Shown piece by piece: positions 19,305 through 46,265 of a DNA stretch of 64,000 bases. Numbering within the stretch: the first letter of the stretch is position 1; the number at the start of each line of letters is the position of its first letter. Under the pieces are notes generated by a model. It did no database searches, was not told where the DNA came from, and worked only from the letters and a program-made list of their open reading frames with translations. The position numbers and the translations under genes were made by a program. The stretch comes from Elusimicrobia bacterium CG1_02_56_21 (GTDB lineage: Bacteria; Elusimicrobiota; Elusimicrobia; Elusimicrobiales; UBA9959): contig MNUR01000085.1 in assembly GCA_001871115.1 (NCBI GenBank), positions 22,060 through 86,059 of the forward strand, written 5' to 3'.

Positions 19305-19314
19305 GGCCTTGTCC

Positions 19315-31826: not shown

Positions 31827-31864
31827 TATATTTTCTCCAGTTATATATTTCCGAATAAGAGCGC

Positions 31865-32704
31865 TTAGTAGCGCAGGTGCTGGTCGAAAGCGCTGCCGTG
31901 TATTCCGCCGTGGCAGGCGGTGCAGTTCCTGAGCGCGGCGCCGGTAATACGCGCGCCGGCTGCCGCGCCGACAGCGTGCCGGTTGTCAGCCAGGGAATGG
32001 CAGCGCAGGCACAGAGCGGGCTGGGCAACCGTCAGCAGTTTCTTTATGGGAGAGCCGTGGGGATTATGGCAGGTAAGGCAGTCTTCGGTAACCGGCGGAT
32101 GCTCCATGGTATAGGGTCCGCGCACCGCCTGGTGGCACTTGGTGCAGGTCTCTGTCTTGGCAGTCAGGGCCTGTTTTTTATCGGTATGGGGGTCGTGGCA
32201 GTCCACGCAGGAGATTCCGCCTTCCTTTAAGGGATGGTGGGAAAACATATTGAAGCGGGCGGTCACTTCCTTATGGCAGGAAGCGCATAAGGCGGAATTG
32301 GCGTCCTTGTATTTTGCCGTGTCCGCGCCCTTTACGACCTTGGGCGTATGGTTGCTGTGACAGGCGGCGCAATTGAGGCCGGCCTTTTTATGGTCGGAGA
32401 ACGCCCAGTTCATCCGGTTGGCGTCTTTTACATGACAGACCTGGCAGGCGGCCGCGCCGGGCCTTGCGGGTTTTGTTTCCGGGCCGGGGTTGGCTAAATG
32501 TTTTTCAGTGCCGCTGTGGCACTTCGAGCAATCCTGCTTGCCGTGCACGCCCCTGGCGTGGGAAGACGAGGCTGCGTCATGGCAGGCTGAACACGCCGCA
32601 TTGGCTGTCGTGTCGGCGCGGGCCGCTGGCGGGTTCGAGAGTATTCCTACAGCGAAAGCCAGCAGGGCAATGACCCCACAGGCCTTTACGTTAATCCTAT
32701 TCAT
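31865..32704 (-). CDS. Periplasmic decahaem c-type cytochrome, MtrA/DmsE/PioA-like
   Basis: Signal peptide plus ten CxxCH motifs in 279 aa (CSACH, CSKCH, CQVCH, CAACH, CASCH, CVDCH, CTKCH, CLTCH, CLRCH, CTACH). The C-terminal CTACHGGIHGS resembles the MtrA family. Confidence 0.85.
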   Translation of the reverse strand: MNRINVKACGVIALLAFAVGILSNPPAARADTTANAACSACHDAASSSHARGVHGKQDCSKCHSGTEKHLANPGPETKPARPGAAACQVCHVKDANRMNWAFSDHKKAGLNCAACHSNHTPKVVKGADTAKYKDANSALCASCHKEVTARFNMFSHHPLKEGGISCVDCHDPHTDKKQALTAKTETCTKCHQAVRGPYTMEHPPVTEDCLTCHNPHGSPIKKLLTVAQPALCLRCHSLADNRHAVGAAAGARITGAALRNCTACHGGIHGSAFDQHLRY

Positions 32705-32872: not shown

Positions 32873-33139
32873 GGGCTTGTTAAAGAATAACTGACGCATT
32901 TGGCTGAGCTGATTTTGGAGCGAGCCGAAGCGGCGTGAAGCGACACGTACTCCATGTACTTTAGCGGAACGCCGCAAAGGCGCAGCCCAAAAGCGGCTCA
33001 GCCCCCCGGGGGAGGCCCATCTTTGAACCGGCTGCCGCGTTGCTCCTCACTCACAGACCACCGGTATGCTCGTTCATCGCGCCTTGCATCCGGATCAAAT
33101 ATGGGCCTCCAAATGCGTCAGTTATTATTTAACAAGCCC
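32873..33139. repeat. MITE-like nested palindromic element, family C. It shares its core with family A.
   Basis: 31-bp terminal inverted repeats GGGCTTGTTAAAGAATAACTGACGCATTTGG (32873-32903) and 33109-33139, with 1 mismatch. Inner palindromes GCTGAGC...GCTCAGC and GGAGGCCCAT...ATGGGCCTCC. The core TTTTGGAGCGAGCCGAAGCG...GCGCAGCCCAAAAGCGG matches the reverse complement of family A. Confidence 0.8.
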
Positions 33140-33852
33140 TAACGCCGTGAAACCTGCTCCAGCCTGGCTTTGTCTTTCACCGCGACGTTCCGGCCGGCGA
33201 CGGAGATCCAGCCTTTCTTGCGGAATTCGGCCAGCAGGCGGCAAAGAACTTCCGGGGAGGTCCCGAGCATTTTGGCCAGGTCTCCCCTGGTCTCCGGGAA
33301 CTGTACGCTGGCAGAGCCCTTGGCAACGGCCCTCTCCACTATATATTTAGCCAAGCGTCCTCTTACGGTTTTAAAGCCGAAGTCCAGCAGCTGCTCCTCG
33401 GAGCGGCCAAGCTCCGCGGCAAAGCGGGTCAGCAGGGCGCGGCAGACCTGAGGGATCTCCAGGAAATTTTTCTCGAAATAGGCCCCGTCCAGGAAACAGA
33501 TCCGGCAGTCTTCCAGCGCTTCGCCAGTGCCCAGATAGGCTTCACCGGCAAGGAAAGAGCGGTCCCCCAGCAGGGCCGGGGCCTCTATCACACGGGGAAT
33601 GCTGGAATGAAGCCCCGTATCCGTCCTTATTATTTTAACCCGGCCTGTACAGAGGAAATACACGCCGAAAGGGCGATTGCCCTCGTAAAAAATAATATTG
33701 CCTTTGCGGTAATCATTGGTTATCCTCTTTTTGCAGAAGCCCTCCCATACCGCGTCAGGAACTGCGGCGAAGACCGGCATTTTCAGCATCGGGCATTTGC
33801 ACTTTGCCGCTTCAAAGGTTTCACACTTACACTTCGGACTGATAGTTTTCAT
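33139..33852 (-). CDS. Crp/Fnr-family transcriptional regulator with an N-terminal Cys cluster
   Basis: cNMP-binding-type beta-roll (IIFYEGNRPFGVYFLCTGRVKI) and C-terminal HTH (RGDLAKMLGTSPEVLCRLLAEFRKKG). N-terminus has SPKCKCETFEAAKCKCP. Confidence 0.85.
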   Translation of the reverse strand: MKTISPKCKCETFEAAKCKCPMLKMPVFAAVPDAVWEGFCKKRITNDYRKGNIIFYEGNRPFGVYFLCTGRVKIIRTDTGLHSSIPRVIEAPALLGDRSFLAGEAYLGTGEALEDCRICFLDGAYFEKNFLEIPQVCRALLTRFAAELGRSEEQLLDFGFKTVRGRLAKYIVERAVAKGSASVQFPETRGDLAKMLGTSPEVLCRLLAEFRKKGWISVAGRNVAVKDKARLEQVSRR

Positions 33853-33882
33853 AACAGTTCTCCTGAATGGTCTTAGTCCGGC

Positions 33883-35058
33883 CTAAACTGCCGGCTTTGC
33901 CGAGATCTCCTCATCAGTAATATAGCAAGCGGGATCGGCTTCCCACATATCGCCGGTAGCGCGAAGCGCGCGCACCCGGAAACCTCCGCCACAAACGTCT
34001 TTCCAGGCACAGGTTCCGCAGCGGCCCTTTAATAGAGGAAGGCGGTTCCTGAGGCCGGCCAGTACGGGGTGTTTCCCCTCCCCCCACACTTTACTGAAGG
34101 GGGTCTGGCGGATATTGGCTATGGTAAGGTCCTGCCAAAACTGGTCCGGGTGTATATTCCCCTTCCAGTCTATATTGGAAAGGGTGACGCCGGAGCCGTT
34201 GGCCCCGCCGCCGTTCCACTGCAGGATCTCGAGAACGGCCGCGGCGCGCTTCGGGTCCTTCTTGAGCAGCTTAAGGTAAAGATAGACCGCGTCGCAGGGA
34301 TTGTCCACGGTGAGGATCTCGGTGGGCTTGGGCTTTTTCGCCAGGATCTCCGCGCGGCGGATGATGGTCTCCATGGCCTTCCGGGATTCGGCGTGGGTGA
34401 GATCGTCGCCGCTGATTTCCCCGCCCCGGCCTGAATAGACCAAATGGTAGAAACAGGCCCTGGGGATCTCCTCGCCTTCTATAAAGTCGAAGATCTTATC
34501 CAGGTTCTCCACATTATGCTTGGTCAGGGTAAAGCGCAGGCCGGTCTTCTGCCCTACCTCTTTAAGGTTGCGCAGGCCTTTGAGCGCGCCCTCGAAAGCC
34601 CCGTCCACGCCGCGGAATTTATCGTTTATCGGGCCGATCCCGTCGAAAGAGATGCCGACATAAGTGATGCCCAGGGACTTGATCTTTTTGGCCATGTCCG
34701 GGGTTATCAGGGTCCCGTTAGTGGAGATAGTAACCCTTATGCCTTTGCCGGTGGCGTAAGAAGCCAGCTCGAAGAAATCCGGGCGGGTAAGCGGCTCGCC
34801 GCCGGAGAAAAGCAGGGCCGAGACGCCCATTTGTCCGACGTCGTCTATCATCACTTTAGCTTCCGCGGTGGTAAGTTCGTCGGTGTCCAGTTCCCCGGTG
34901 GAATTCGCGTAGCAGTGCACGCATTTCAGATTGCAGCGCTTGGTGCTGCTCCAGACCACGATGGGCCTGCGGGCGCCCGCGCCCTCTTTATTGCCGCCGT
35001 AGCGCAATTTCACTGAGGGAGTATCGATGCTGCACCACATTTTTGTTATATCAAGCAT
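33883..35058 (-). CDS. NirJ/AhbC/AhbD-family radical SAM enzyme with a SPASM domain (alternative haem biosynthesis)
   Basis: CNLKCVHCY radical SAM motif. C-terminal CGTCAWKDVCGGGFRVRA. Sits among ahbAB and other haem genes. Confidence 0.75.
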   Translation of the reverse strand: MLDITKMWCSIDTPSVKLRYGGNKEGAGARRPIVVWSSTKRCNLKCVHCYANSTGELDTDELTTAEAKVMIDDVGQMGVSALLFSGGEPLTRPDFFELASYATGKGIRVTISTNGTLITPDMAKKIKSLGITYVGISFDGIGPINDKFRGVDGAFEGALKGLRNLKEVGQKTGLRFTLTKHNVENLDKIFDFIEGEEIPRACFYHLVYSGRGGEISGDDLTHAESRKAMETIIRRAEILAKKPKPTEILTVDNPCDAVYLYLKLLKKDPKRAAAVLEILQWNGGGANGSGVTLSNIDWKGNIHPDQFWQDLTIANIRQTPFSKVWGEGKHPVLAGLRNRLPLLKGRCGTCAWKDVCGGGFRVRALRATGDMWEADPACYITDEEISAKPAV

Positions 35059-35094
35059 ATTTATATTCCTATTTATGTAAAACGCTGTAGTCTT

Positions 35095-36198
35095 TTATTT
35101 TTTAGCTTTTGCCTTGGGTTCATAGAGGCAGTACGGCTCCTGGCCCATGTAGTCGCCGGTGGTCCCGAAAGCCCTGGCCCGGCAGCCGGCGCAGATAACC
35201 CGGTATTCGCAGACCCCGCATTTTCCTTTAAGGGCGTCCGGGTCGGTGATGGTCTTGAAGACCTCGGAGTTCTCCCAGACCTCCCAGAAATTCTGTTTCC
35301 GCAGGTCCCCGGCCGGCACGGGCAGATAACCGCAGGGGAAAACCTCCCCCTTGTGGGAGATGAAGGCGATAGCGCTGCCGGCCAGGCAGCCGCGCATCTG
35401 GGCGGTCCGGCCCGCGAACTCGGGGCTGGAAGCGGCAACTTTCTGGCGGACTATCCTGGTCTGGTGCGGCGCGCAGGTGGCGCGTATCTCCATGCCGCCG
35501 GGCGCGGGATGAGCGTGACCGTGGCCATGGGCCGGGTGCCCGGCGGCGCCCTGCTGCACCATCAGCCAGTTGAGGAATTCCTCGTAGTTCTCGGCGCCGA
35601 GGCGCATCGCGTCTGGCAGCTCGGCGCCGCAGCCCACCGGGACCAGCAGGAAGAAATGCAGGGCGTCCACCCCCAGCTCGCGGGCCAGTTTCACCACCGC
35701 GTCGCGCTCGGCCACGTTCCTGGTGCTGACCGAGCAGTTGATCTGGGTGGAGATGCCGGCGGCCCTGAAAAGCTTGAGGGCGTTCACGGCCTTGTCGAAA
35801 GAGCCTTTCTGGCCGCGGAACTCGTCGTGCGTGGAAGCTATCGCCCCGTCCAGGCTGACGGAGATCCGGTGCGGGCCGTAGGAGGCCAGCATTTTGGTCA
35901 TCGCTTCGTCCACGAGCGCGCCGTTGGTGGCGATGGCGAAGGGGATGCCTTTCTCCTTGGCGAAGGCGAGCAGCTCGGGCAGGTCTTTCCGCATCAGCGG
36001 CTCGCCGCCGGAAAAGACCACCATCGGCGGGCGGCCTTCGCCTTTGAGCGAGAGCAGGATAGCCTTGAATTCGTCTGTGGGGAGTTCATATAGTTCATCG
36101 CCCCTCTCGGGGACATTGGTCCGGCGGCAGTGCACGCACTGCAAGTTGCAGCGGGAAGTGGTTTCCCAGAAAACTAACCTCGGCGGATTTCTTTTCAT
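35095..36198 (-). CDS. NirJ/AhbC/AhbD-family radical SAM enzyme with a SPASM domain and a His-rich insert
   Basis: CNLQCVHCR motif. C-terminal CGVCEYRVICAGCRARA. Insert GHPAHGHGHAHPAPGG. The ATG at 36198 is preceded by AAGGA. The longest ORF starts at 36225. Confidence 0.75.
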   Translation of the reverse strand: MKRNPPRLVFWETTSRCNLQCVHCRRTNVPERGDELYELPTDEFKAILLSLKGEGRPPMVVFSGGEPLMRKDLPELLAFAKEKGIPFAIATNGALVDEAMTKMLASYGPHRISVSLDGAIASTHDEFRGQKGSFDKAVNALKLFRAAGISTQINCSVSTRNVAERDAVVKLARELGVDALHFFLLVPVGCGAELPDAMRLGAENYEEFLNWLMVQQGAAGHPAHGHGHAHPAPGGMEIRATCAPHQTRIVRQKVAASSPEFAGRTAQMRGCLAGSAIAFISHKGEVFPCGYLPVPAGDLRKQNFWEVWENSEVFKTITDPDALKGKCGVCEYRVICAGCRARAFGTTGDYMGQEPYCLYEPKAKAKK

Positions 36199-36231
36199 GG
36201 TGGTGTCCTTCAAGTAGCGTATCAAAGTCTG

Positions 36232-36361
36232 GGGCCGTCAGGTGTTCTGCCCTGCGAACCCTGGAAGAGGAAACCCTTGCGTCGGTTTTCCCCCGCCCGG
36301 GAAAATTAGGGCGGGGCCCCCTTTCCGCAAAGGGTTCACAGGGCAGAACACCTGCCGGCCC
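36232..36361. repeat. Structured palindromic intergenic element, family B, copy 1 (candidate cis-acting RNA)
   Basis: Outer arms 36239-36254 CAGGTGTTCTGCCCTG and 36339-36354 CAGGGCAGAACACCTG (perfect 16 bp, extendable to 36232/36361 with 1 mismatch). Conserved core GAACCCTGGAAGAGGAAACCCTTGCGTCGGTTT...GGCGGGGCCCCC..TTCCGCAAAGGGTTCA is shared with 41143-41251. Confidence 0.75.
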
Positions 36362-36365
36362 GGGC

Positions 36366-37652
36366 TCATAAAAGCAGGGCCTGTTCCGCGGCTTTCAGCG
36401 TCGCTTCTATGTCCGCGGGCTTGTGGGCCGTGGAAATGAAGCAGGTCTCGAACTGGCTGGGCGGCAGGTAGACGCCGCGCTCAGCCATCGCCCAGAAATA
36501 GTCGGCGTAGCGCTTCGTATCGCAGCCGGCGGCGCCGGTCCAGTCTTTCAGCGGGCCTTTAGAGAAGAAAAGGGTGAACAGCGAGCCCACCCGGTTAAGA
36601 GTAAGCGGCAGGTTCCCCTCCCTTATAATAAGGCGCAGGCCTTTCTCCATGGCCTGGCCGGAAGCCTCCAGCTGTTTATAAACTCCAGGCTTTGAAAGCT
36701 TTTTGATCGCGGCGCAGCCGGCCGCCATGGCCAGGGGATTGCCGGAAAGCGTGCCGGCCTGGTATACCTTCCCGGCCGGGGAAAGGTGCTTCATTATTTT
36801 CTTGCCGCCGCCGTAGGCGCCGACTGGCAGGCCGCCGCCTATTATCTTCCCGAGAGTGGTCAGGTCCGGCTTGATGCCGTACAGGCCCTGCGCGCCGCCG
36901 AAGCCGACGCGGAAGCCGGTGATGACTTCGTCGAAGATGAGGAGAGCGCCGGTAGCGGTGCAGGTCTTCCTCAGCGCGGCCAGGAAGCCCGGCTCCGGAA
37001 GCATCAGGCCCATATTGGCGGCTACGGGCTCCACTATCACGCAGGCGACTTCTTTGCCGCTGCGCTTCATATAGGCCCGGAAGCCTTCGATATCGTTATA
37101 TTCCAGCGAGACGGTATTGCGCGCGAAAGCCGCCGGAACGCCGGGGCTGGAAGGAGAGCCGAAAGTAGCCGCTCCGGAGCCCGCTTTCACCAGCAGGGAA
37201 TCGGCGTGGCCGTGGTAGCAGCCGGTAAATTTGACTATTTTATCCCGGCCGGTATAACCGCGGGCCAGCCGGATGGCGCTCATTACGGCCTCGGTGCCGG
37301 AGGAGACGAAACGCAGCTTCTGGATAGAGGGCAGGGCTTTCTTTATCATTTCGGCCAGCACGGCTTCGGCCTCGGTGGGAGCCCCGTAGGAAGTTCCTTT
37401 GCCGATGGCGCCCGTGATAGCCTTCTGTATGTCCGGGTCGGCGTGGCCGAGTATCATCACGCCCCAGGAAGTGACATAGTCCACATAAGAGTTCCCGTCC
37501 ACATCCTTAAGCCGCGAGCCTTTGGCTTCTTTTATAAAGAGAGGCGTTCCGCCTACGGCGTTAAAGGCCCTGACGGGGCTGTTGACCCCTCCGGCCAGAT
37601 GCTTAAGGGAATAGTTCCAGAGTTTTTTGGATTTATCAGTTTTGAGTTTCAT
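36366..37652 (-). CDS. hemL: Glutamate-1-semialdehyde 2,1-aminomutase
   Basis: Class III aminotransferase with a typical HemL N-terminus (GGVNSPVRAF) and FDEVITGFR. Confidence 0.95.
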   Translation of the reverse strand: MKLKTDKSKKLWNYSLKHLAGGVNSPVRAFNAVGGTPLFIKEAKGSRLKDVDGNSYVDYVTSWGVMILGHADPDIQKAITGAIGKGTSYGAPTEAEAVLAEMIKKALPSIQKLRFVSSGTEAVMSAIRLARGYTGRDKIVKFTGCYHGHADSLLVKAGSGAATFGSPSSPGVPAAFARNTVSLEYNDIEGFRAYMKRSGKEVACVIVEPVAANMGLMLPEPGFLAALRKTCTATGALLIFDEVITGFRVGFGGAQGLYGIKPDLTTLGKIIGGGLPVGAYGGGKKIMKHLSPAGKVYQAGTLSGNPLAMAAGCAAIKKLSKPGVYKQLEASGQAMEKGLRLIIREGNLPLTLNRVGSLFTLFFSKGPLKDWTGAAGCDTKRYADYFWAMAERGVYLPPSQFETCFISTAHKPADIEATLKAAEQALLL

Positions 37653-37683
37653 ATTTTAGCTGCTGCTAATGTGCTGCGCTTCT

Positions 37684-39024
37684 TTATAACTTCAGCGCGT
37701 CTACAAAATCAGCGAGTTCTTTATCGGTTCCGTCGAAAGGGGGCATGGTAGCTGCGGGATTCCTTAAGATGTTCTTCAGCTCTTCTTTGGTGTGCAGCTG
37801 CAGGGGTTTCTCCAGGTTAGGGCCGAAAGTACCGCCTTCGCCGTTATAAGTGTGGCAGACCAGGCAGCCGCGCGCTTCCAGCTCCACTTCCACATCGTGT
37901 TTTGAAGCCGATGGTTTAACCGGCGCGGACTTGGCCGCGGCGGTTTTAACGGGTTCGGGTTTAGGCGCCTGCTTTGCCGGAGTTTTCACTTCTGCGGCAG
38001 CCTTGGTTTCTGCAGCCGCAATCCCGGCTTTTTTAGGCGCGGCTACCAGAGCCCCGGTCATATACATATGCCCGTATATCAAATAAGGCTTCCTGGCCCG
38101 CTCGCGTGTGTAAGCTCCGAATGAAAAAGCTGTGAGCGCGGCCAGGCCGCCGGCGAGCAGAACTTTCCGCTTTGTCTTACGGGAGAGCAGGTAAACGGCG
38201 GAACAGGCAACGGCTATCGTGGCCAGGCTGGCCATGGGCCAGAAGAATTTGGCTACCGGGCCTTTTACTATGCTGTCGAAGACCGCCAGATTTATGTATT
38301 TAAGGGTGAATAAATAAGACAGGCCGCTTAAAGGCTGGAGCAAAATAGCCACGGCGAAGATGGTTCCGCAATAATCCAGCATCCAGGAATAATAGCCGGC
38401 GTCGGCGGCCGGCGCTTTACGCAGTTTAATGAAAGCGTAGATATAGCCGAACATAGCTGAATTTATCAGGCAGGGGAGCAGCACATGGGTGCTGGAGGCG
38501 GCGAAGCTGGGATTAAAGACCGCGTTCATAAGACGGGGATCCTGGAAATAGGTACCCGGGGTCAGCATAAAAGACCAGGCGGCGTTTATGACCAGCGCCG
38601 CGGCTATACCGGAAGCCGCCGCTACCCCGCCTATGAAGATATGCCGGCCTTTATTTGGGTTATCCCAGGTTCCGCCGTAGAGCGCGGTAGAAGCCATCAT
38701 TACCAGGAAGAGAACCGCTTCAAGGAAAAGCGGCCAGAAGAAGATATTGTAAAGTTTTGAAGTGAACTCGGGGAAAAGCCCGATGAGGAGAACCACAAAA
38801 GTAACGCCCAGCACGCCGTTTATCTTCATCATGTCGGAAAGGAAATTTATATAACCTTTCGCGAACCTGTCATGAAAAGCGCTGTTCTTCCTGTAGCCTA
38901 TCCATTCCCCGGTAAAAGCCAGGAAAACACCCCCAACCGCCACGAAAGCGAAAAAAACATGGGTAACAATGACCAGCGCCATTACCAGGGAATTACCGAG
39001 GAAAGGGAAATTTATATGGGGCAT
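37684..39024 (-). CDS. Cytochrome bd subunit I (CydA)-like membrane protein fused to a C-terminal monohaem cytochrome c domain
   Basis: The N-terminus LVMALVIVTHVFFAFVAVGG...FWPLFLEAVLFLVMM resembles CydA helices 1-3. About 9 TM helices, an Ala/Lys/Pro linker, then CLVCH...MPPF. The family call is tentative. Confidence 0.5.
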   Translation of the reverse strand: MPHINFPFLGNSLVMALVIVTHVFFAFVAVGGVFLAFTGEWIGYRKNSAFHDRFAKGYINFLSDMMKINGVLGVTFVVLLIGLFPEFTSKLYNIFFWPLFLEAVLFLVMMASTALYGGTWDNPNKGRHIFIGGVAAASGIAAALVINAAWSFMLTPGTYFQDPRLMNAVFNPSFAASSTHVLLPCLINSAMFGYIYAFIKLRKAPAADAGYYSWMLDYCGTIFAVAILLQPLSGLSYLFTLKYINLAVFDSIVKGPVAKFFWPMASLATIAVACSAVYLLSRKTKRKVLLAGGLAALTAFSFGAYTRERARKPYLIYGHMYMTGALVAAPKKAGIAAAETKAAAEVKTPAKQAPKPEPVKTAAAKSAPVKPSASKHDVEVELEARGCLVCHTYNGEGGTFGPNLEKPLQLHTKEELKNILRNPAATMPPFDGTDKELADFVDALKL

Positions 39025-39063
39025 GTTTTATCAGTTTCCTCCTCTATCCGGGACAGCTATTTC

Positions 39064-39531
39064 TTAAAAGTACGCCATGCTGGTCTTTTTAAATTCTCTT
39101 AAGCTCTCAAGAACCAGGTACTCTTTGGCCCCGGTCTTTTTTACCAGTCCGCTGACCACCTTTAAGATTTCGGCGCGGCTGCGGCCGTGGACCATAGTAT
39201 AAAGGTTATAGGACCAGCCCGGGCGGACAACGCGCTCATAGCAGTGGCTTATGGCCGGGGAGGCTGCGGCGGTCTTGCCGAAAGAAATAGCCCGGCCGGC
39301 CGGGATCTTCCAGGCTACCATAGCGTTGGCAAAATAACCGGCGCGCTTATGCCTGACTATAGCGCGCACGCAGCGCAGCACTCCGGATTTTTTGAATTTC
39401 TTAAGCGCGGCCAGGAATTCTTCCTCTTTAATACCCAGGCCGGCCGCCATCTTTTTAAAAGGCTCGGGCTCAAGAGGGATATCTCCCTGGAGGGCGCGGA
39501 CTATGGCTTCTTCGGTCTTCTTTAATTTCAT
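39064..39531 (-). CDS. Sirohaem decarboxylase subunit (AhbA/AhbB, NirD/L/G/H family, AsnC-like)
   Basis: IVRALQGDIPLEPEPFKKMAAGLGIKEEEFLAALKKFKKSGVLR and SHCYERV. ATGA start/stop overlap with the upstream paralog at 39528-39531. The longest ORF starts at 39669. Confidence 0.75.
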   Translation of the reverse strand: MKLKKTEEAIVRALQGDIPLEPEPFKKMAAGLGIKEEEFLAALKKFKKSGVLRCVRAIVRHKRAGYFANAMVAWKIPAGRAISFGKTAAASPAISHCYERVVRPGWSYNLYTMVHGRSRAEILKVVSGLVKKTGAKEYLVLESLREFKKTSMAYF

Positions 39532-40118
39532 ATGGGAAAGAAAGTCTTTATCTTGAACATTGTTTTCACCGGGAAGGAATAACATTTCTCCACCCCGGGC
39601 AGCCGCCTGAAAACGGCTATCTGCCGGTTCACCCCGGCCATGGTTCCCCGCACTCCTACGGTAAACCAAAGGTTCATTTCCCCCGCCCTTTCATAACAAT
39701 GGGTAACTCCGGGGAATTTAGAAATTTCTTTAGCTACGGCCGCCAGCCGGGAGGGTTTCACCCGCGCACCGGCGAGCGTGGAAGAAAAACCCAGCTTGCG
39801 GGTTTCAAAGCTGCCGCCTATCCTGCGGACCACGCCTTTTTTCTTATAAGTTTTAAGCACTTTAAGGACATCGGCCCCCGTCACGCCTATCCCGGCGCCC
39901 AGGGCTTCAAAAGGGCGGCTGCAGGCGGGAATATCCGTCTGGGCCGCGTCCAGGACCAGTTTTTCTATTCTTGTAGCCCGAATTCCGCTTGCGGAATTCC
40001 CCGCGCAGCGGGCGGAAGGCCCAGCGCTATGCGCGCCCGGCCCGACGGGGCGTATGCCTCCCGCAGGGCGCCCGCTATGCGGGCGGTAAACTTCACCAGA
40101 AGTTTTCAGGCTAGCCAT
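39528..40118 (-). CDS. Sirohaem decarboxylase subunit (AhbA/AhbB family) with a low-complexity N-terminal extension
   Basis: LVLDAAQTDIPACSRPFEALGAGIGVTGADVLKVLKTYKKKGVVRRIG and THCYERA. The only ATG overlaps the hemB end by 13 nt. Confidence 0.7.
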   Translation of the reverse strand: MASLKTSGEVYRPHSGRPAGGIRPVGPGAHSAGPSARCAGNSASGIRATRIEKLVLDAAQTDIPACSRPFEALGAGIGVTGADVLKVLKTYKKKGVVRRIGGSFETRKLGFSSTLAGARVKPSRLAAVAKEISKFPGVTHCYERAGEMNLWFTVGVRGTMAGVNRQIAVFRRLPGVEKCYSFPVKTMFKIKTFFPI

Positions 40119-41092
40119 TTGGCGGCGTCCTTGGCGTGGTAGGTTATTATCATGTCGGCCCCGGCCCTTTTAATAGAGGTCAGGATCTCCAGGACCATGG
40201 CTTTCTCGTTTATCAGGCCTTTCTGCGCCGCCGCCTTCACCATCGAATACTCGCCGCTCACATTGTAAGCCGCGGTCGGGAACTGGAATTTTTCTTTTAC
40301 AGCGCGCAGGATGTCCAGGTAGGCCAGGGCCGGCTTCACCATTACGATATCGGCGCCCTGCCTCACGTCGAGCTCCACCTCGCGCAGCGCCTCGAGATAA
40401 TTGGCCGGGTCCATCTGGTAGGTTTTCCTGTCCCCGAACTGCGGGGCGGACTGGGCCGCTTCGCGGAAAGGCCCGTAGAAAGCGGAAGAATATTTGGCGG
40501 CGTAGGAAAGTATGCCTACGTCCTGGAAACCTTTCCCGTCCAGGGCTTTCCTTATCGCCCCGACGCGGTTGTCCATCATATCGGAAGGAGCGACCAGGTC
40601 GGCGCCGGCTTCGGCGTGCACCAAAGCTTCTTTGACCAGCAGCTCGAGCGTGCGGTCATTGTCCACCAGCATTTCGCCGGCGCGGTTCTTCCTGACGACG
40701 CCGCAATGCCCGTGGCTGGTGTATTCGCAAAGGCAGACGTCGGTCATCACGGCGATATCCGGCACGGACTTCTTTATCAGCCTGACGGCCTCCGGCACGG
40801 GGCCCCCGGGGTCATAGGCTTCTTTCCCGAGCGGGTCTTTTTTAGAGGGCAGCCCGAAAAGTATCAGCGAGTTTATGCCGAGGGCGCGGCATTTCGCGGC
40901 TTCGGCCGCCGCCTCGTCCACGGACAGGTGGAAGCAGCCGGGCATGGAAGAGATCTCTTTTTTGTATTTTTTACCGGGGACCACGAAAAGCGGGTAGACG
41001 AAATTGTCGGCGGTAACGCGGGTTTCCCTGAACATGTCGCGGGCCCATTTCAGGTTCCTGAGTCTGCGAGGGCGGGCTGAATCGGAAAGCAT
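40106..41092 (-). CDS. hemB: Porphobilinogen synthase (delta-aminolevulinate dehydratase), Zn type
   Basis: CLCEYTSHGHCG zinc site, SDMMDNRVGAIR, MVKPALAYLD. Confidence 0.95.
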   Translation of the reverse strand: MLSDSARPRRLRNLKWARDMFRETRVTADNFVYPLFVVPGKKYKKEISSMPGCFHLSVDEAAAEAAKCRALGINSLILFGLPSKKDPLGKEAYDPGGPVPEAVRLIKKSVPDIAVMTDVCLCEYTSHGHCGVVRKNRAGEMLVDNDRTLELLVKEALVHAEAGADLVAPSDMMDNRVGAIRKALDGKGFQDVGILSYAAKYSSAFYGPFREAAQSAPQFGDRKTYQMDPANYLEALREVELDVRQGADIVMVKPALAYLDILRAVKEKFQFPTAAYNVSGEYSMVKAAAQKGLINEKAMVLEILTSIKRAGADMIITYHAKDAAKWLA

Positions 41093-41142
41093 GTGGTCTT
41101 CTCCTTGAAGTCTGGCGGCTGTTAGCCTGCGGGTTCGGGCCT

Positions 41143-41251
41143 CCAGGGAACTTCCCCCGTGAACCCTGGAAGATGGAAACCCTTGCGTCGGTTTCCCCCC
41201 GTCAGGCGGGGCCCCCCCTTCCGCAAAGGGTTCACGGGGGAAGTTCCCTGG
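41143..41251. repeat. Structured palindromic intergenic element, family B, copy 2
   Basis: Perfect 25-bp arms CCAGGGAACTTCCCCCGTGAACCCT (41143-41167) and AGGGTTCACGGGGGAAGTTCCCTGG (41227-41251). Same core as copy 1, different outer arm sequence. Confidence 0.75.
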
Positions 41252-41261
41252 CGGACCTCCA

Positions 41262-42776
41262 CTAACGGGCTTTCTTAAAATATCCCTGCGCCGCTTCCAC
41301 GAGGCCCGGGATAGTGTAATCCTTCGCTTCGAAATCGGGTTTAAAGCCCTCCGATTTCATGGTGCCGGAAGTGATGGGGCCGATGCTGCCCATGGCCACG
41401 CCTTTAAGAAGTTTCTTGTCGGCGCCCTTGAAGCTCTCCATAAAACCGGTAACCGTGGAAGAGCTGGTAAAGGTGACAAGGTTTACCTCCCCTGCCTGCA
41501 GCAGCTTCTTCAGTTCCGGGAAATTGCCCCTGTCGGGAACGGTATTATAGGTGGGGATCTCGGTTACCAGGGCGCCGGCTTTTTTAAGGCCCGCATTAAG
41601 CATATCCCTGGCCATAGCGGCCCGGGGCAGGAGTATTTTCTGACCTTTCACTTTACCCAGCGCTTTCAGAATTGACTCGGAGATATACTTTTCCGGGACC
41701 AGGTCGGCATTTATGCCCCTGGCGCGCAGCGCCTCCGCCGTAGCGGGCCCGATAGCGGCCACTTTCGCGCTCCCGAAGCGGCGCGCGTCCAGGCCGAGCT
41801 TATTAAGCCGGTTAAAGAAAACTTCCACGCCGTTGGCGCTGGTAAAGATTACCCAATTGTAGCCGCCCAGCCCTTTTATTTCTTTATCCAGTGCGGAAAA
41901 AGTTTTAAGAGGTTCTATTCTTATTGAAGGGAAAACAATAACTTCGGCGCCCAGGCCGGTGAATTGCTGAGCAAGGGCGCTGGCCTGCTCCCGGGAGCGG
42001 GTCACCACTATTTTCCTGCCGAAAAGCGGCCTTTTCTCGAACCAGGCCAGCTGCCCGCGCAGGCCGGCCACGCCGCCCACCACGGTGACGGCGGGGGCTT
42101 TTATGTCCGCCTTGCGGGCGAGTTCGGCTATAGTAGAAAGGGTCCCGGAAAGGGATCTCTGCCGGGGCGTGGTCCCGTTGGAAACGATAGCGGCCGGGGT
42201 GGAGCCTTTCAGCCCCGCGGCCATGAGCTTGGCGGAAATGACGTCGAGGCTTGAAACGCCCATCAGGAAAACCAAAGTCCCGCCGCCGGAAGCCAGGCTG
42301 TCCCAGGGGAGTTTAAGCTCGCCATTCTTCTGGATATGCCCGGTAAGGAAGGTCACCATAGGCGCGAAAGAGCGGTCCGTGACCGGGATGCCGGCGTAAG
42401 CCGGCGCGGCCACGGCCGAGCTGACCCCGGGAACTATTTCAAAAGGTATTTTAGCGGCCGCGAGGTCCCTGGCCTCTTCCCCGCCGCGTCCGAAGATGAA
42501 AGGGTCCCCGCCTTTAAGGCGCACTACCGTGCCGCCTTTTTTGCCGAGGCGGACCAGGAGGGCGTTGATATCCTCCTGCTCCATGGCGTGTACCGCGCCG
42601 CGCTTTCCCACATAAAATTTTTTGGCTCTCTCCGGCGCCATGTTCACAAAATCGGGGTTGGACAGGGCGTCGTAAACCACATAGTCGGCCTTGCGCAGGC
42701 ACTCCGCGCCTTTGATCGTCAGCAGGCCGGGATCGCCGGGGCCGCCGCCCACCAGGTACACTTTGCCTTTCGTCAT
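41262..42776 (-). CDS. cobA-hemD: Uroporphyrinogen-III C-methyltransferase / uroporphyrinogen-III synthase fusion (CobA-HemD)
   Basis: N-terminal SUMT motif GKVYLVGGGPGDPGLLTIKG...VVRLKGGDPFIFGRGGEE. The C-terminal roughly 250 aa are HemD-like. Confidence 0.9.
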   Translation of the reverse strand: MTKGKVYLVGGGPGDPGLLTIKGAECLRKADYVVYDALSNPDFVNMAPERAKKFYVGKRGAVHAMEQEDINALLVRLGKKGGTVVRLKGGDPFIFGRGGEEARDLAAAKIPFEIVPGVSSAVAAPAYAGIPVTDRSFAPMVTFLTGHIQKNGELKLPWDSLASGGGTLVFLMGVSSLDVISAKLMAAGLKGSTPAAIVSNGTTPRQRSLSGTLSTIAELARKADIKAPAVTVVGGVAGLRGQLAWFEKRPLFGRKIVVTRSREQASALAQQFTGLGAEVIVFPSIRIEPLKTFSALDKEIKGLGGYNWVIFTSANGVEVFFNRLNKLGLDARRFGSAKVAAIGPATAEALRARGINADLVPEKYISESILKALGKVKGQKILLPRAAMARDMLNAGLKKAGALVTEIPTYNTVPDRGNFPELKKLLQAGEVNLVTFTSSSTVTGFMESFKGADKKLLKGVAMGSIGPITSGTMKSEGFKPDFEAKDYTIPGLVEAAQGYFKKAR

Positions 42777-43324
42777 ATTTGCCTTAGAAGTCTGAAGTAG
42801 GCCTGTTTGTCGGCCTTCGCTTTGGACGCGAGCATTTTAACGCGCAGCTGCCGCAAAGCCTCAACTTTTTCAGCGAAAGCGCCGCCGTAGGTTTTCTCCA
42901 GCTGAAGGCGGATCTTTTTCGCCAGGGCCGGGCTGGCCCCGCCGGTAGAAACGGCTATGGTCAGGGGCCCGTTCCTGAAAACCGCGGGCACTATGAAATT
43001 GCAGAGGGCCGGCCTGTCCACCACGTTCACCAGCGCCCCGCTCCTGGCCGCCGCCTCGCCTACCAGGGCGTTCACTTCTTCGGAATCTGTGGAGCAGACT
43101 ACCAGGGCCGCGCCTTTCAGGTCCGAAAGCCTGAATTTACGCCTGAAAAACCTGACCTGCCCTTTTTCGCCGAGCTTTGCGAAACCCGGGTGTAAAAGGG
43201 GAGCCACGACCTTAACTTGCGTAGCGCCGGACTTAAGCAGCGTTTCCGTTTTGCGGAACGCTACCTCGCCGCCGCCTACCACGAGGCATGGCTTCCCCTT
43301 TATGTCAAGGAACACCGGGTACAA
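42773..43324 (-). CDS. Precorrin-2 dehydrogenase / sirohydrochlorin ferrochelatase-type protein (SirC / CysG N-terminal domain)
   Basis: FLDIKGKPCLVVGGGEVAFRKTETLLKSGA...NVVD...IAVSTGGASPALAKKIR. 4-nt overlap with cobA-hemD. Confidence 0.85.
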   Translation of the reverse strand: MYPVFLDIKGKPCLVVGGGEVAFRKTETLLKSGATQVKVVAPLLHPGFAKLGEKGQVRFFRRKFRLSDLKGAALVVCSTDSEEVNALVGEAAARSGALVNVVDRPALCNFIVPAVFRNGPLTIAVSTGGASPALAKKIRLQLEKTYGGAFAEKVEALRQLRVKMLASKAKADKQAYFRLLRQI

Positions 43325-43332
43325 AAAGGCTT

Positions 43333-43782
43333 TTATTTCGCTTCCTCTTTCTTCTCTTCGCTCTTCTTCCTGTCCACGTCTACGTGGGGGCTGTGGCAGT
43401 CGCGGCAGTCGCGGCCTTTGCCGTTTATCATCTTTTTCTTATCGGCCATGGGGGCTTTCATGTGAAGGCTGCCCGCGCCGTGGCAGGCTTCGCACTGCAC
43501 GTTGGCCATTTCCGGGGTAGCTTCCATGGAGACAAAGCCGCCGGTTTCGCCCATGCCGGTAACATGGCACTTTACGCACTCGGGTTTTTTCCGGTCTTCG
43601 GCGGTAAGAGCATCTATCGCCGTAGCATGCTTCATCTTCATCCAGGTAGCGTGCTGCTTGGAATGACACATTTTGCACTTGCCTGCGCCGAGGTACGTAG
43701 CTGTTGCGGGCGCGTCCTGGGCCACAACTATTCCGGCTATGCCCATGAACACCAGACACCCGAGCAATGATATCGTTTTCAT
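43333..43782 (-). CDS. Periplasmic tetrahaem c-type cytochrome
   Basis: Signal peptide MKTISLLGCLVFMGIAGIVVAQ. CKMCH, CVKCH, CEACH, CRDCH. AGGAGG Shine-Dalgarno before the ATG at 43782. The longest ORF starts at 43866. Confidence 0.8.
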   Translation of the reverse strand: MKTISLLGCLVFMGIAGIVVAQDAPATATYLGAGKCKMCHSKQHATWMKMKHATAIDALTAEDRKKPECVKCHVTGMGETGGFVSMEATPEMANVQCEACHGAGSLHMKAPMADKKKMINGKGRDCRDCHSPHVDVDRKKSEEKKEEAK

Positions 43783-43996
43783 TTTTCCTCCTGAGGATCT
43801 AGAACAGATAAAACAATACTTATTTAGAAATGGTTGCAGGCTGGCGGACTGCCCACGGACTTGCAAGCATTACTCTGATTATACAGTTTTTTTTGAGGTT
43901 ATGCCAAAGAGCCGGACCCGGCCGCTATAGGACCGGGTTCCAGAGCGCTGCCGGGTTAAAAAAGCTTATTGAATAAGGGAAAGCCGAAATTCGGGA

Positions 43997-45319
43997 TTAA
44001 GGGTTTTCGGAGGGAGCCTTGTCGCGGCCCCATCTGCCGGGGGAAACCCCGGTTTTAAGGTTTCCGGACTGGACTGCGGCTTTATCCCCGCTTATCCCGG
44101 CAGAATGCGGCTCAGTATCAGCCTGCAGCCGGCCGGTCAAGATAGGAACGGCTATTTTAAGTATTAAGGTGTAAATAAAGAAACCAAGGGCCCAGATTCC
44201 CGCGCAGATCAGGATTTCGTTATAGGTAGGCAGATATTCGACTATCTCGCCCAGGGGATTGGGAATAAAAGCCGGGATTATAAAACCCATCCCTTTCTCT
44301 ATCCAGACCCCTATTATAGCCAGGACGCAGGCAGCGTTGAGCCATTTAAGTTTGCGGGAAGCCGGCAGCATCAAAAGCAGGAAAGCGGTCACGTTCATCC
44401 CCAGCGCGGTCCAGATCCAGGGAACCAGCGCGCTATGTCCGTGCAGGCCGAACAGGAGATATTTAATATGCGCCACATGCTGGGTCTGCATGTAAAACTC
44501 TTTAAAGACTTCGCTGAGAAAAAGAAAAATATTTATCGCCATCGCTACCTGTACCACGTCCCTCAGCCGCAGCACCGCCCCGTCCAGGATATTATAGGAA
44601 GTATAGCGCCGCACCAGCTGGAGAATGAGAATAAGGAAGGCGGGTCCCGCCGTGAAAGCCGAGGCCAGGAAACGCGGCGCGATAATGGAAGAATGCCAGA
44701 AAGGACGCCCGGCCAGGCCCTGGTAGAGAAAAGCCGTAACGGTATGAATGCTTACGGCCCAGACTATTGAAAGCAGGACAAAAGGGATATAGAGGAGCTT
44801 GAGCGGCTCCCGCTTTAAAAAACGCATATAAAGCAGGTACCCGGCGACATAAGCGTTAAGGAAAAGATAACCGTTTAAGACTATAACATCCCAGGTAAGC
44901 AGGGAGCTGGGCCAGTTAAAATTTCCCAGCGGCGGCGGCAGCATATGCCAGACCCTTTCCGGGCGCCCCAGGTCCACGGTTACGAACAGCATGGCCATTA
45001 TAAGCGTGGCAACGGCCAGGATCTCGCCGAAAACCACCACATCGTGCATATGATGGTCGTGATAGATATAAACCGGGATAACCATCATTACCGCCGCGGC
45101 GGCCATGCCCACCAGGAAGGTGAAATTGGCAATATAAAGGCCCCAGGAGACATGATCCGACATCCCCGTGGTCCCGAGACCGTGCACGAACTGCACGCAA
45201 TAAGCGTTGATCCCGGCCAGGGTAATAAGCGCAAGGGCCGACATCCAGGCGTAATAGCGCCAGTCGCCGTTCAGGACTTCCCCTGCGGAAAGCCGGAAAA
45301 ATCTGAGAAGATTAGACAT
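43997..45319 (-). CDS. NrfD/PsrC-family integral membrane quinol-interacting subunit
   Basis: About 10 TM helices with a NrfD-like N-terminus (WGLYIANFTFLVGMAAAAVMMVIP). The ATG at 45319 overlaps the FeS gene end by 8 nt. Confidence 0.8.
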   Translation of the reverse strand: MSNLLRFFRLSAGEVLNGDWRYYAWMSALALITLAGINAYCVQFVHGLGTTGMSDHVSWGLYIANFTFLVGMAAAAVMMVIPVYIYHDHHMHDVVVFGEILAVATLIMAMLFVTVDLGRPERVWHMLPPPLGNFNWPSSLLTWDVIVLNGYLFLNAYVAGYLLYMRFLKREPLKLLYIPFVLLSIVWAVSIHTVTAFLYQGLAGRPFWHSSIIAPRFLASAFTAGPAFLILILQLVRRYTSYNILDGAVLRLRDVVQVAMAINIFLFLSEVFKEFYMQTQHVAHIKYLLFGLHGHSALVPWIWTALGMNVTAFLLLMLPASRKLKWLNAACVLAIIGVWIEKGMGFIIPAFIPNPLGEIVEYLPTYNEILICAGIWALGFFIYTLILKIAVPILTGRLQADTEPHSAGISGDKAAVQSGNLKTGVSPGRWGRDKAPSENP

Positions 45320-46265
45320 CGGTGTAATAATAGAACCTGGGCACCGTGCCAAGTTCTTCCTTAAAGATATATACGCGCTTGTCGCGGATAATGCTGGAGA
45401 TCTCGCTGTCAGGGTCCAGCATATTCCCGAATTTCCGCGAGCCCGTGGGGCAAACTTCCAGGCAGGCCGGGTATTTCCCCGCCCGCGTCCGCTGCAGGCA
45501 GAAAGTGCATTTCTCCATTGTGCCTTTAGGCCTGGGCCGGTTGGAGAGATAATCTATCTTCGGATTAAAATCTTTTTCAGGCAGATAGGGCTCTTTGAAA
45601 TTAAAACGCCTGGCATGGTAGGGACAGGCGGCCTCGCAGTAGCGGCAGCCGATGCACCAGTTATAATCCACCACCACTATCCCGTCGGGCTCCCTCCAGG
45701 TGGCTTTAACCGGGCAGACCTTGGTGCAGGGCGATGTTTCACAATGATGGCACTGCACCGGCATGTAGTAATGGCCCTCTTTAGGGACCTGGCCCTCGTA
45801 ATCGATGCTGGATTTCTCCACATCGATATTCCCCTTCTCCATCTGCAGCACGCTTATATATTGTATCTGGGGGTCCCGGGACTGGTTATTTTCTTTCATG
45901 CAGGCGTAAACGCATTTCCGGCAGCCCACGCAGCGCCCGATATTAAGGGCGTAAGCGTACTGCACCCCGTCCATAGGCGGAAGGGCGGTCAGTTGCGGGG
46001 CGGCCCCGTATTTTTCCTGCAGCTGAGAGGCTATCCTTTCAAGGACCTCTTTCTTCTGGCCGGGAGTAAGCTCGGTAAAATGTTTTTGCAGCATCTCTCG
46101 CAAAGGAGGGAATCCGCCAAAATCCCTCAGGGGAGAGAGCGCGGCCGCCGCGGCTGCGGCGGCGCCGGCGGCAGCCACGGCGAGGAACTGCCTGCGGGTA
46201 ACGCCGGAGCCATAGGGCTTGGGATGGGAAAAGGGGGCTCCTTGCGGATCTTTTTCTTCGGCCAT
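45312..46265 (-). CDS. Tat-exported 4x[4Fe-4S] ferredoxin subunit (NrfC/PsrB/DmsB-like)
   Basis: Twin-arginine signal VTRRQFLAVAAAGAAAAAAAA. Cys clusters CVGCRKCVYAC, CHHCETSPCTKVCP, CIGCRYCEAACP, CTFC...CLEVCP. TAATG overlap at 46265. Confidence 0.85.
   Translation of the reverse strand: MAEEKDPQGAPFSHPKPYGSGVTRRQFLAVAAAGAAAAAAAALSPLRDFGGFPPLREMLQKHFTELTPGQKKEVLERIASQLQEKYGAAPQLTALPPMDGVQYAYALNIGRCVGCRKCVYACMKENNQSRDPQIQYISVLQMEKGNIDVEKSSIDYEGQVPKEGHYYMPVQCHHCETSPCTKVCPVKATWREPDGIVVVDYNWCIGCRYCEAACPYHARRFNFKEPYLPEKDFNPKIDYLSNRPRPKGTMEKCTFCLQRTRAGKYPACLEVCPTGSRKFGNMLDPDSEISSIIRDKRVYIFKEELGTVPRFYYYTDV

Follow-up and report, generated by a model that had tools for sequence, protein, structure and literature searches.

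A CydA-like membrane protein fused to a cytochrome c domain in a haem operon of Elusimicrobiota, and its place within or next to the OR-C family of the bd superfamily

Within the bd superfamily, the OR-C family comprises CydA homologues of about eight transmembrane (TM) helices which lack the quinol site and carry a C-terminal periplasmic haem c, and for which cytochrome c was proposed as electron donor (Murali, Gennis and Hemp 2021, bioRxiv 10.1101/2021.01.16.426971). Many monohaem members were tabulated in the same study, and the family was recorded in Elusimicrobiota. OR-C1a was described there as typically adjoining its paralogue OR-C1b, and the OR-C1a reference sequence keeps H19, E99 and E107 (numbering of Escherichia coli CydA), with H186 (F183), M393 and E445 absent. 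A further described relative is the "CydA homolog" of cable bacteria, which has a C-terminal periplasmic cytochrome domain, occurs mostly without CydB and had its role called unresolved (bioRxiv 10.64898/2026.01.20.700514; PMC10030654). The question at stake in these organisms is O2 reduction without a recognised terminal oxidase. Here we analyse a gene of this type, designated CydA-c, in a stretch of 64,000 nucleotides (nt) from Elusimicrobia bacterium CG1_02_56_21 (contig MNUR01000085.1, positions 22,060-86,059, forward strand; assembly GCA_001871115.1), which as a whole is termed the window and to which coordinates refer unless another locus is named. The architecture of CydA-c has already been described and is not a new kind of system. 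The residue pattern of the protein nevertheless places it in a subclade of its own, inside OR-C or beside it, and a lineage-specific long linker and the haem-operon context distinguish the Elusimicrobial members.

The protein is tripartite: a membrane domain resembling CydA is joined through a disordered linker to a class-I cytochrome c domain with a single haem. Residue equivalences were derived from an alignment with CydA of Geobacillus thermodenitrificans and from the residue table of Murali et al.; conservation counts refer to a family alignment of 58 sequences, which extends down to 30% identity to CydA-c and on which the AlphaFold2 model was also built. The gene and its features are listed below (aa, amino acids).

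37684-39024, minus strand: CydA-c fusion gene, 446 aa plus stop, ATG start; product 100% identical to a database protein of Elusimicrobia bacterium CG1_02_56_21 (open reading frame (ORF) listing, protein search)
38038-39024, minus strand: CydA-like membrane domain, aa 1-329 (Pfam, PDB profile, AlphaFold2 model, Foldseek)
aa 11-46, 49-83, 85-118, 125-154, 174-203, 206-244, 258-280 and 286-310: TM helices (AlphaFold2 model)
38959-38961, minus strand: His22, counterpart of His19 of E. coli CydA, which is an axial ligand of the haem d/b595 site (aligned to Geobacillus H21)
38719-38721, minus strand: Glu102, corresponding to E. coli Glu99 (aligned to Geobacillus E101)
38698-38700, minus strand: Met109, at the position of E. 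coli Glu107 (aligned to Geobacillus E108)
38485-38487, minus strand: His180, corresponding to His186 of E. coli and Geobacillus, axial His of haem b558 (pairwise and profile alignment)
38254-38292, minus strand: short periplasmic TM6-TM7 loop at the place of the Q-loop, aa 245-257 (helix boundaries of the model)
38233-38235, minus strand: Met264, at the start of TM7, candidate equivalent of the axial Met of haem b558 (E. coli M393, Geobacillus M325; family-profile alignment)
38086-38106, minus strand: RERARKP motif, aa 307-313, corresponding to the CydA motif ExGRQPW (aligned to Geobacillus AEVGRQP)
37903-38037, minus strand: Ala/Lys/Pro-rich disordered linker, aa 330-374 (pLDDT below 50, composition)
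37687-37902, minus strand: periplasmic monohaem class-I cytochrome c domain, aa 375-446, 72 residues (Pfam, family profile)
37852-37866, minus strand: CLVCH, haem c motif
37735-37746, minus strand: MPPF, distal Met motif

An earlier note, made from the sequence alone, had likened the N-terminal part to cytochrome bd subunit I, and this assignment is borne out. Pfam family PF01654 (Cyt_bd_oxida_I) matches aa 14-234, equivalent to profile positions 5-230 of 418, with 65.4 bits (E 4.8e-18, gathering score 26.2). CydA of Geobacillus (5doq_A) is the sole relative of solved structure recovered by sequence, with an E-value of 5.7e-13 for CydA-c alone and of 3.5e-27 for the profile of the 58-member family. 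When the model of CydA-c was compared with the PDB by Foldseek, the ten best fold matches were all CydA chains (TM-score up to 0.71), followed by CydB chains. The model has a mean predicted local distance difference test score (pLDDT) of 83.9, exceeding 90 throughout the membrane part, and a predicted template-modelling score (pTM) of 0.80. Model and hydropathy agree on eight TM helices, one fewer than the approximately nine first estimated. A GGAGGA ribosome-binding site lies 12 nt 5' of the ATG; on account of this strong site, the invariant ligand set and the conserved full-length homologues, a pseudogene or chance ORF was rejected.

The ligand residues are present as well. The conserved His and Glu to which the earlier note had pointed, His22 (in THVFFAF) and Glu102 (in FLEAVLF), are invariant in 58/58 sequences, and H128, the counterpart of E. 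coli H126, is likewise invariant. The RERARKP motif, in which R307, E308, R311, K312 and P313 do not vary, supplies Glu308 (E. coli E445) and Arg311 (E. coli R448), so that the residues of the di-haem O2 site, H22, E102, E308 and R311, are all retained throughout the family alignment. His180 is invariant too (58/58), whereas mainstream OR-C proteins have Phe, Leu or Val there. Position 264 is Met in all 43 sequences of the clade to which CydA-c belongs, termed the stand-alone clade for its genomic setting, and Gly in the paired clade described below. What has been lost is the acidic residue equivalent to Glu107, proposed as primary proton donor in E. coli bd-I (PMC13189123): the stand-alone clade has Leu, Met or Ile throughout, whereas Glu is kept in most other OR-C representatives and is replaced by non-acidic residues in the putative b-type paralogues and a few outliers. 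The Q-loop between TM6 and TM7, on which the quinol site of all quinol-oxidising bd enzymes is built, is missing from CydA-c, in which only 25 residues separate the invariant G234 from the invariant F260 (25-41 across the family), compared with about 80 between the aligned anchors G242 and M325 of Geobacillus CydA; Pro231 occupies the aligned place of Geobacillus residue 239, which was taken as the Q-loop anchor Asp239 of E. coli.

The linker, which the earlier note had recognised as rich in Ala, Lys and Pro, contains 14 Ala, 9 Lys and 7 Pro in 45 residues and is modelled as disordered; its expansion is confined to the Elusimicrobiota clade. The monohaem domain that follows was also read correctly at the outset: its single CxxCH (C387, C390, H391) and the Met of MPPF (M427) are invariant. 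The domain is modelled as helical. Taken alone, it has Cytochrome_CBB3 as best Pfam match, at 25.6 bits just below the cut-off of 27; the family profile matches cytochromes c555, c552, c551 and NorC at E-values of 4e-14 to 1e-3 and CcoP chains weakly. Because the number of TM helices is even (eight), the haem c domain is placed in the periplasm. Lys/Arg-rich loops after TM1, TM3, TM5 and TM7 (aa 44-52, 116-127, 200-210 and 279-288) fit an N-out, C-out topology, but the TM6-TM7 loop and the segment after TM8, both assigned to the periplasm, are likewise Lys/Arg-rich, and the charge bias is only suggestive. TM1-TM8 of CydA are kept, and the disordered linker and the cytochrome domain in effect take the place of TM9.

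An exhaustive profile search yielded 234 representative clusters (50% identity) at E <= 1e-30, some of which match through repeated cytochrome c domains only; many of the full-length ones are longer and multihaem. A signature was read from 146 aligned representatives at nine positions, E. coli H19, E99, E107, H126, H186, M393, position 303, E445 and R448, and gave the following patterns.

HEEH[F/L/V]..ER: mainstream OR-C, among them the 8-haem type of Desulfovibrio; E107 is kept and the b558 His is lost, in agreement with F183 of Murali et al.
HEEHHGMER: paired a-type proteins of Chloroflexota; E107 and b558 His both kept
HQ[N/G]HH.M[S/A]R: putative b-type paralogues, assigned by this pattern; E99, E107 and E445 lost
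HE[L/M/I]HHMGER: the stand-alone clade of CydA-c only; both putative b558 ligands kept, E107 lost

At 19 further positions, several of them methionine, the stand-alone and the paired clade are fixed differently. The methionines that mark the stand-alone clade are M15, M65, M66, M110, M264 and M322, to which the invariant M153 can be added, and a conserved Pro184-Cys185 lies one turn past the b558 His. CydA-c agrees with the definition of OR-C in its eight TM helices, the missing quinol site, the CxxCH with distal Met and the outward C-terminus. From OR-C1a it departs in residue pattern (H, E, M(109), H(180), M(264), E(308)) and in setting, since OR-C1b is missing from the window and, in about 38 loci of the clade, from the 8 kb around the gene. 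The search for the fused architecture in other genomes, as suggested by the earlier note, led to the known OR-C proteins and to the cable bacteria, whose Electrothrix and Electronema proteins are among the nearest relatives outside Elusimicrobiota (35-40% identical to CydA-c at 96-100% coverage); a few proteins of uncultured Deltaproteobacteria and Melainabacteria are closer (43-58% identity). Domain identity, topology, residue conservation and the genomic contexts given next are the demonstrated part of this analysis.

In the window, CydA-c lies in a predicted operon of the alternative, anaerobic (Ahb) route of haem synthesis, within a haem/cytochrome island of about 25 kb that is encoded entirely on the minus strand.

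33139-43907, minus strand: predicted operon containing CydA-c (same strand, gene identities, promoter-like site)

In the direction of transcription, the operon consists of a promoter-like site, the gene of a tetrahaem c554-like cytochrome, sirC, cobA-hemD, hemB, ahbA, ahbB, cydA-c, hemL, ahbD, ahbC and a crp/fnr-family regulator gene. The best promoter-like site of the minus strand (43907->43878, 11/12 matches) is situated just upstream of the c554-like gene. Neighbouring genes are up to 169 nt apart or, where extended ORFs overlap, share up to 142 nt; the gaps flanking CydA-c are 39 and 31 nt, and a scan for intrinsic terminators inside the operon gave only intragenic, near-background matches (31 found, 22.5 expected). 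The earlier note had placed the gene between hemL and ahbA; the haem-operon position holds, but the gene directly upstream encodes AhbB (NCBIfam 167.6 bits against a cut-off of 125), and AhbA is encoded one gene beyond it. Its statement that no CydB is adjacent was upheld, the flanks being ahbB and hemL, and tblastn with CydA-c and a Chloroflexota b-type paralogue detected no second CydA- or CydB-like gene in the 64-kb window. From low to high coordinate, the island encodes a HemA-HemC fusion, a CcsA-like protein, CcsA, CcsB/ResB, an ORF with four to five haem motifs, a 703-aa protein, a decahaem cytochrome, the CRP/FNR regulator, AhbC, AhbD, HemL, CydA-c, AhbB, AhbA, HemB, CobA-HemD, SirC, the tetrahaem c554-like cytochrome, a DsrP/NrfD-like membrane protein, a DsrO/NrfC-like FeS protein, a tetrahaem NrfB-like cytochrome and TatC. 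A complete system II (CcsB/CcsA) is thus present in the window.

The operon order recurs in eight further loci from metagenome-assembled genomes (MAGs) of Elusimicrobiota, which makes nine genomes with the window. In locus L021 (5467-7312, the contig ending inside the gene), CydA-c follows hemB at a distance of 194 nt with no ahbA or ahbB in between, and because hemB there directly precedes the gene, the linkage of CydA-c to haem genes has survived rearrangement. These loci are close relatives, their neighbouring genes being 84-96% identical, but CydA-c itself only 62-82%. In the comparison of loci L013-L019 with window positions 33139-43866, identities are 62-74% for CydA-c, 81-96% for HemB, HemL, AhbC, AhbD and CobA-HemD, and 73-88% for SirC, AhbA, AhbB and the c554-like cytochrome. 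By these values CydA-c evolves much faster than most of its operon neighbours, the variable linker being only part of the cause. Outside the phylum the setting changes. About 38 loci hold the relatives that are 35-58% identical. Spread over Desulfobulbaceae, other Deltaproteobacteria, Zixibacteria, Ignavibacteria, Brocadiaceae and Melainabacteria, these all stand alone, with no haem genes, paralogue or CydB within 8 kb, and the haem-operon linkage is gone in all relatives below about 60% identity (more than 35 loci, many phyla). Because the linkage is restricted to Elusimicrobiota, the haem-operon position is a lineage-specific capture in a cytochrome-rich island and not a property of the family; together with the island itself, this restriction largely explains a position for which the earlier note had no explanation. 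The c554-like tetrahaem protein was sought as a partner elsewhere, and tblastn matches were obtained in Elusimicrobiota loci only. Nearly all relatives at 28-34% identity, from Chloroflexota and Calditrichota, have an adjacent b-type paralogue (the locus L064 is truncated). In two loci of Anaerolineae, L006 (12597-14485) and L010 (12587-14490), a conserved gene for a protein of about 227-228 aa without family match comes after the paired OR-C a/b genes, as does a gene for a Usp/PCP_red-domain protein; both products might be additional subunits of the paired enzyme or act as its accessory factors.

The immediate neighbours of the 38 stand-alone loci were pooled and scanned against Pfam for a conserved functional partner. 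They reflect mostly lineage synteny (acs in cable bacteria, Ser/Thr kinase-CHASE2, SecA, RsmB, AIM24), and the sole functionally suggestive theme among them is defence against O2 and reactive oxygen species, in the following loci.

L008: desulfoferrodoxin, overlapping the start of the CydA-c homologue by 4 nt
L012: thioredoxin reductase, glutaredoxin, rubrerythrin, rubredoxin and desulfoferrodoxin near the homologue
L023: rubrerythrin near the homologue
L024: AhpC and desulfoferrodoxin beside the homologue
L047: Fur-family regulator, flavin-reductase-rubredoxin fusion and rubrerythrin (scanned individually)
L051: OsmC near the homologue

The loci L050 and L054 have neighbouring ORFs equal in size to those of L047, and three members matched Flavin_Reduct plus Rubredoxin in the pooled scan.

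The haem occupancy of CydA-c, its substrate, its oligomeric state and the direction in which electrons flow are what we infer from these data. We favour, at roughly even chances, the reading that CydA-c reduces O2 with electrons from periplasmic cytochromes, i.e. the proposal made by Murali et al. for OR-C applied to the stand-alone clade. It is supported by the missing quinol site, the invariant di-haem residues and the occurrence of relatives among O2-defence genes. The tethered haem c would receive its electrons from c-type cytochromes of the periplasm, one candidate donor being the tetrahaem c554-like protein whose gene opens the operon; the NrfD/DsrP-like module and the many cytochromes encoded near CydA-c could feed a periplasmic electron pool. 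From the tethered haem c, electrons would pass to a b558-type haem (His180/Met264) and on to the di-haem site (His22, Glu102, Glu308, Arg311), where O2 or a related small oxidant would be reduced. With Met or Leu in place of Glu107, a residue of the cytoplasmic proton path, turnover would probably not be coupled to cytoplasmic proton uptake or charge separation, and the protein would serve an oxygen-sensitive bacterium as an O2 scavenger or electron sink rather than as an energy-conserving oxidase; O2 reduction without energy conservation, which matches such non-coupled turnover, has been considered for cable bacteria (bioRxiv 10.64898/2026.01.20.700514; PMC10030654). CydA-c would probably work alone or as a homo-oligomer, because no second subunit is encoded nearby. 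The simplest reason for the placement in the haem operon would be co-expression of a predicted four-haem protein with its haem supply and cytochrome partners, and co-expression could suffice to account for the position because four haems are predicted, the candidate donor is an operon mate, and haem, maturation and cytochrome genes are interleaved. Protection of the O2-labile radical S-adenosylmethionine (SAM) enzymes AhbC and AhbD by CydA-c is a possibility.

Several points weigh against this assignment. The main one is the loss of Glu107 itself. The b558 His/Met pair, which in canonical enzymes belongs to the quinol-proximal haem, is kept in the stand-alone clade and lost in mainstream OR-C, and Met264 is aligned to Geobacillus M325 in a segment that has a weak E-value of its own. 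CydB is reported to be essential for the activity of canonical bd oxidases, yet no partner is seen for CydA-c, and the searchable literature holds no biochemical data on any member of OR-C or of the cable-bacteria type. O2-defence neighbourhoods occur in only about eight of the 38 stand-alone loci, in about five independent arrangements, the rest being mostly uninformative, and in the window the FNR-type operator TTGAT-N4-ATCAA has no match with up to one mismatch (0.96 expected).

The retained b558 pair is also the starting point for the opposite direction of electron flow. Menaquinol might be oxidised at a reduced site by the b558 haem and the electrons exported through haem c, for example to a decahaem/porin conduit, a reading that accommodates the combination, confined to the stand-alone clade, of conserved H180 and M264 with loss of the proton donor Glu107, which O2 chemistry would need. 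A CymA-like export role has been entertained in the literature for the cable-bacteria homologue of 35-40% identity (bioRxiv 10.64898/2026.01.20.700514; PMC10030654), and this same hypothesis for a homologue lends the export reading some support; so do the MtrA/DmsE-type decahaem cytochrome and the 703-aa candidate outer-membrane protein in the island, and the relative L003, which adjoins Rieske/cytochrome b and multihaem genes. We nevertheless regard export as doubtful: the loop between TM6 and TM7 (25-41 aa) leaves no Q-loop, Pro231 takes the place of the anchoring Asp, the neighbourhoods with desulfoferrodoxin, rubrerythrin, AhpC and rubredoxin point to O2 handling, and the invariance of H22, E102, E308 and R311 is left unexplained. 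The same features speak against the proposal of the earlier note that the protein is a quinol-oxidising scaffold forming a quinol:cytochrome c module. That proposal is not supported, because a pure relay would not need an invariant di-haem O2 site; moreover, the island already contains a dedicated NrfD/DsrP-like, 4Fe-4S and tetrahaem module, 5 kb from CydA-c, that could take on the quinol:cytochrome c function.

With periplasmic input and the same scaffold, the substrate might instead be H2O2, NO or peroxynitrite, and the loss of Glu107 would then reflect a different chemistry. Side activities of this sort are reported for canonical bd oxidases. A di-haem site conserved in spite of the missing E107, and neighbours that handle peroxide and superoxide (rubrerythrin, AhpC, OsmC, desulfoferrodoxin) and not respiration, are in line with such a substrate, but we consider this variant quite improbable. 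A role in haem metabolism, be it in haem trafficking, as a sensor of haem sufficiency or redox state, or as a maturation factor, would fit the location between ahbB and hemL in the nine Elusimicrobiota genomes (after hemB in L021) and the presence of hemA-hemC and ccsBA in the same island. Yet the linkage is absent outside Elusimicrobiota and lineage-specific among closely related MAGs, several other ordinary cytochrome genes are interleaved with the haem genes, haem export is already provided for by a complete system II (CcsB/CcsA), and CydA-c has no WWD or other haem-handling motif, which makes a role of this kind highly improbable. As the principal explanation, haem trafficking or biogenesis was rejected on the disappearance of the operon linkage outside Elusimicrobiota and the presence of CcsBA.

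A more far-reaching statement would join these elements, namely that the stand-alone clade (Elusimicrobiota, cable bacteria, Zixibacteria, Ignavibacteria, Melainabacteria and others) represents a distinct, partner-less four-haem enzyme of the bd type without quinol site or Glu107 path, and that its fixed place in the Ahb operon of Elusimicrobiales is functional and not incidental. As a whole we judge it rather unlikely. Within it, the enzyme may catalyse non-electrogenic O2 reduction by periplasmic electrons or may run the chain in reverse as a Q-loop-independent quinol:cytochrome c relay, and its role in the operon might be, for example, to shield the O2-labile radical-SAM haem synthases or to gate haem synthesis by redox state. 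Independently of this statement, a sharp and testable signature, b558 His/Met kept, Glu107 lost and no partner, separates the stand-alone clade from mainstream OR-C, and the recurrent adjacency to superoxide and peroxide defence as well as the placement in the haem operon of Elusimicrobiota are genetic handles for distinguishing an O2 scavenger from an electron-export module.

Several neighbouring genes of the island deserve mention in their own right. The HemA-HemC fusion (23095-25029, minus strand, 644 aa) unites glutamyl-tRNA reductase (GlutR_N and Shikimate_DH, aa 6-306) with porphobilinogen deaminase (aa 351-623) in a single ORF, two enzymes that catalyse steps one and three of the dedicated tetrapyrrole pathway. 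Between ccsB and the decahaem region lies an ORF of 217 aa (28753-29406, minus strand) with four CxxCH and one longer CxxxxCH-type motif, which has no Pfam family and, as called, no N-terminal signal sequence. At 29715-32704 (minus strand), the gene of a 279-aa decahaem cytochrome of the DmsE/MtrA family (10 CxxCH) precedes that of the 703-aa protein, which has a signal peptide and no family match. The latter is a candidate outer-membrane β-barrel, inferred solely from its place beside the decahaem gene, and the two together look like a porin-cytochrome conduit for extracellular electron transfer; the pair is tandemly duplicated in the related MAG locus L001 (16828-21317). The CRP/FNR-family regulator at the operon end (33139-33852, minus strand), of which L001 has two tandem copies, carries an N-terminal CKC-x7-CKC that could be the site of a redox- or O2-sensing cluster. 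The longest-ORF calls of ahbA and ahbB (39064-40118, minus strand) overlap by 142 nt; because the L001 homologues have 150 and 152 aa, the true starts are probably downstream of those listed. Directly upstream of the haem operon, at 43997-46873 (minus strand), the DsrP/NrfD-like protein (NCBIfam DsrP, 423 bits, cut-off 350) and the DsrO/NrfC-like FeS protein are completed by the tetrahaem NrfB-like cytochrome, which is membrane-anchored. The scanned ORFs included no further dsr genes, and the module looks like a stand-alone quinol:cytochrome module (Qrc/Nrf/ACIII-like). Elsewhere in the window, at 17628-21015 (minus strand), two adjacent paralogues of the PmbA/TldD metallopeptidase family (587 and 566 aa) have overlapping ORF calls.

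Compared with the described systems, CydA-c shares with OR-C1a the set of about eight TM helices, the missing quinol site, the periplasmic C-terminal CxxCH and the conserved H19 and E99, but OR-C1a is paired with OR-C1b and mostly keeps E107 while having lost the b558 His, the reverse of what is found in CydA-c. The paired OR-C-like a/b genes of Chloroflexota and Calditrichota (e.g. L006, L010, L056-L063) have the same two-domain architecture at 28-34% identity and retain the equivalent of H180; they differ in the adjacent b-type paralogue (24.6% identity to CydA-c), in E107, and in Gly at position 264 and Met at position 303. Canonical CydA (Geobacillus 5DOQ, qOR3; E. coli bd-I 6RKO, qOR1) agrees in its fold (TM-score 0.57-0.71) and in the counterparts of H19, E99, H126, H186, E445 and R448, with a candidate counterpart of M393, whereas CydA-c has no Q-loop, eight instead of nine TM helices, no E107 and no CydB or CydX, and has gained a haem c domain. 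The tethered c-type haem recalls subunit II of caa3 and CcoP of cbb3 oxidases, by analogy only: it passes periplasmic electrons to a membrane oxidase there, but the catalytic subunits are unrelated (haem-copper versus bd superfamily), and CydA-c is without a copper site. The CydA homolog of cable bacteria belongs to the same clade as CydA-c, with which it shares the signature HE[L/M]HHMGER, the stand-alone state and the two functional hypotheses. It comes from another phylum, the Ala/Lys/Pro linker being much longer in the Elusimicrobial proteins, and its genes adjoin acs and unrelated genes, whereas the Elusimicrobial CydA-c is embedded in an Ahb haem operon.

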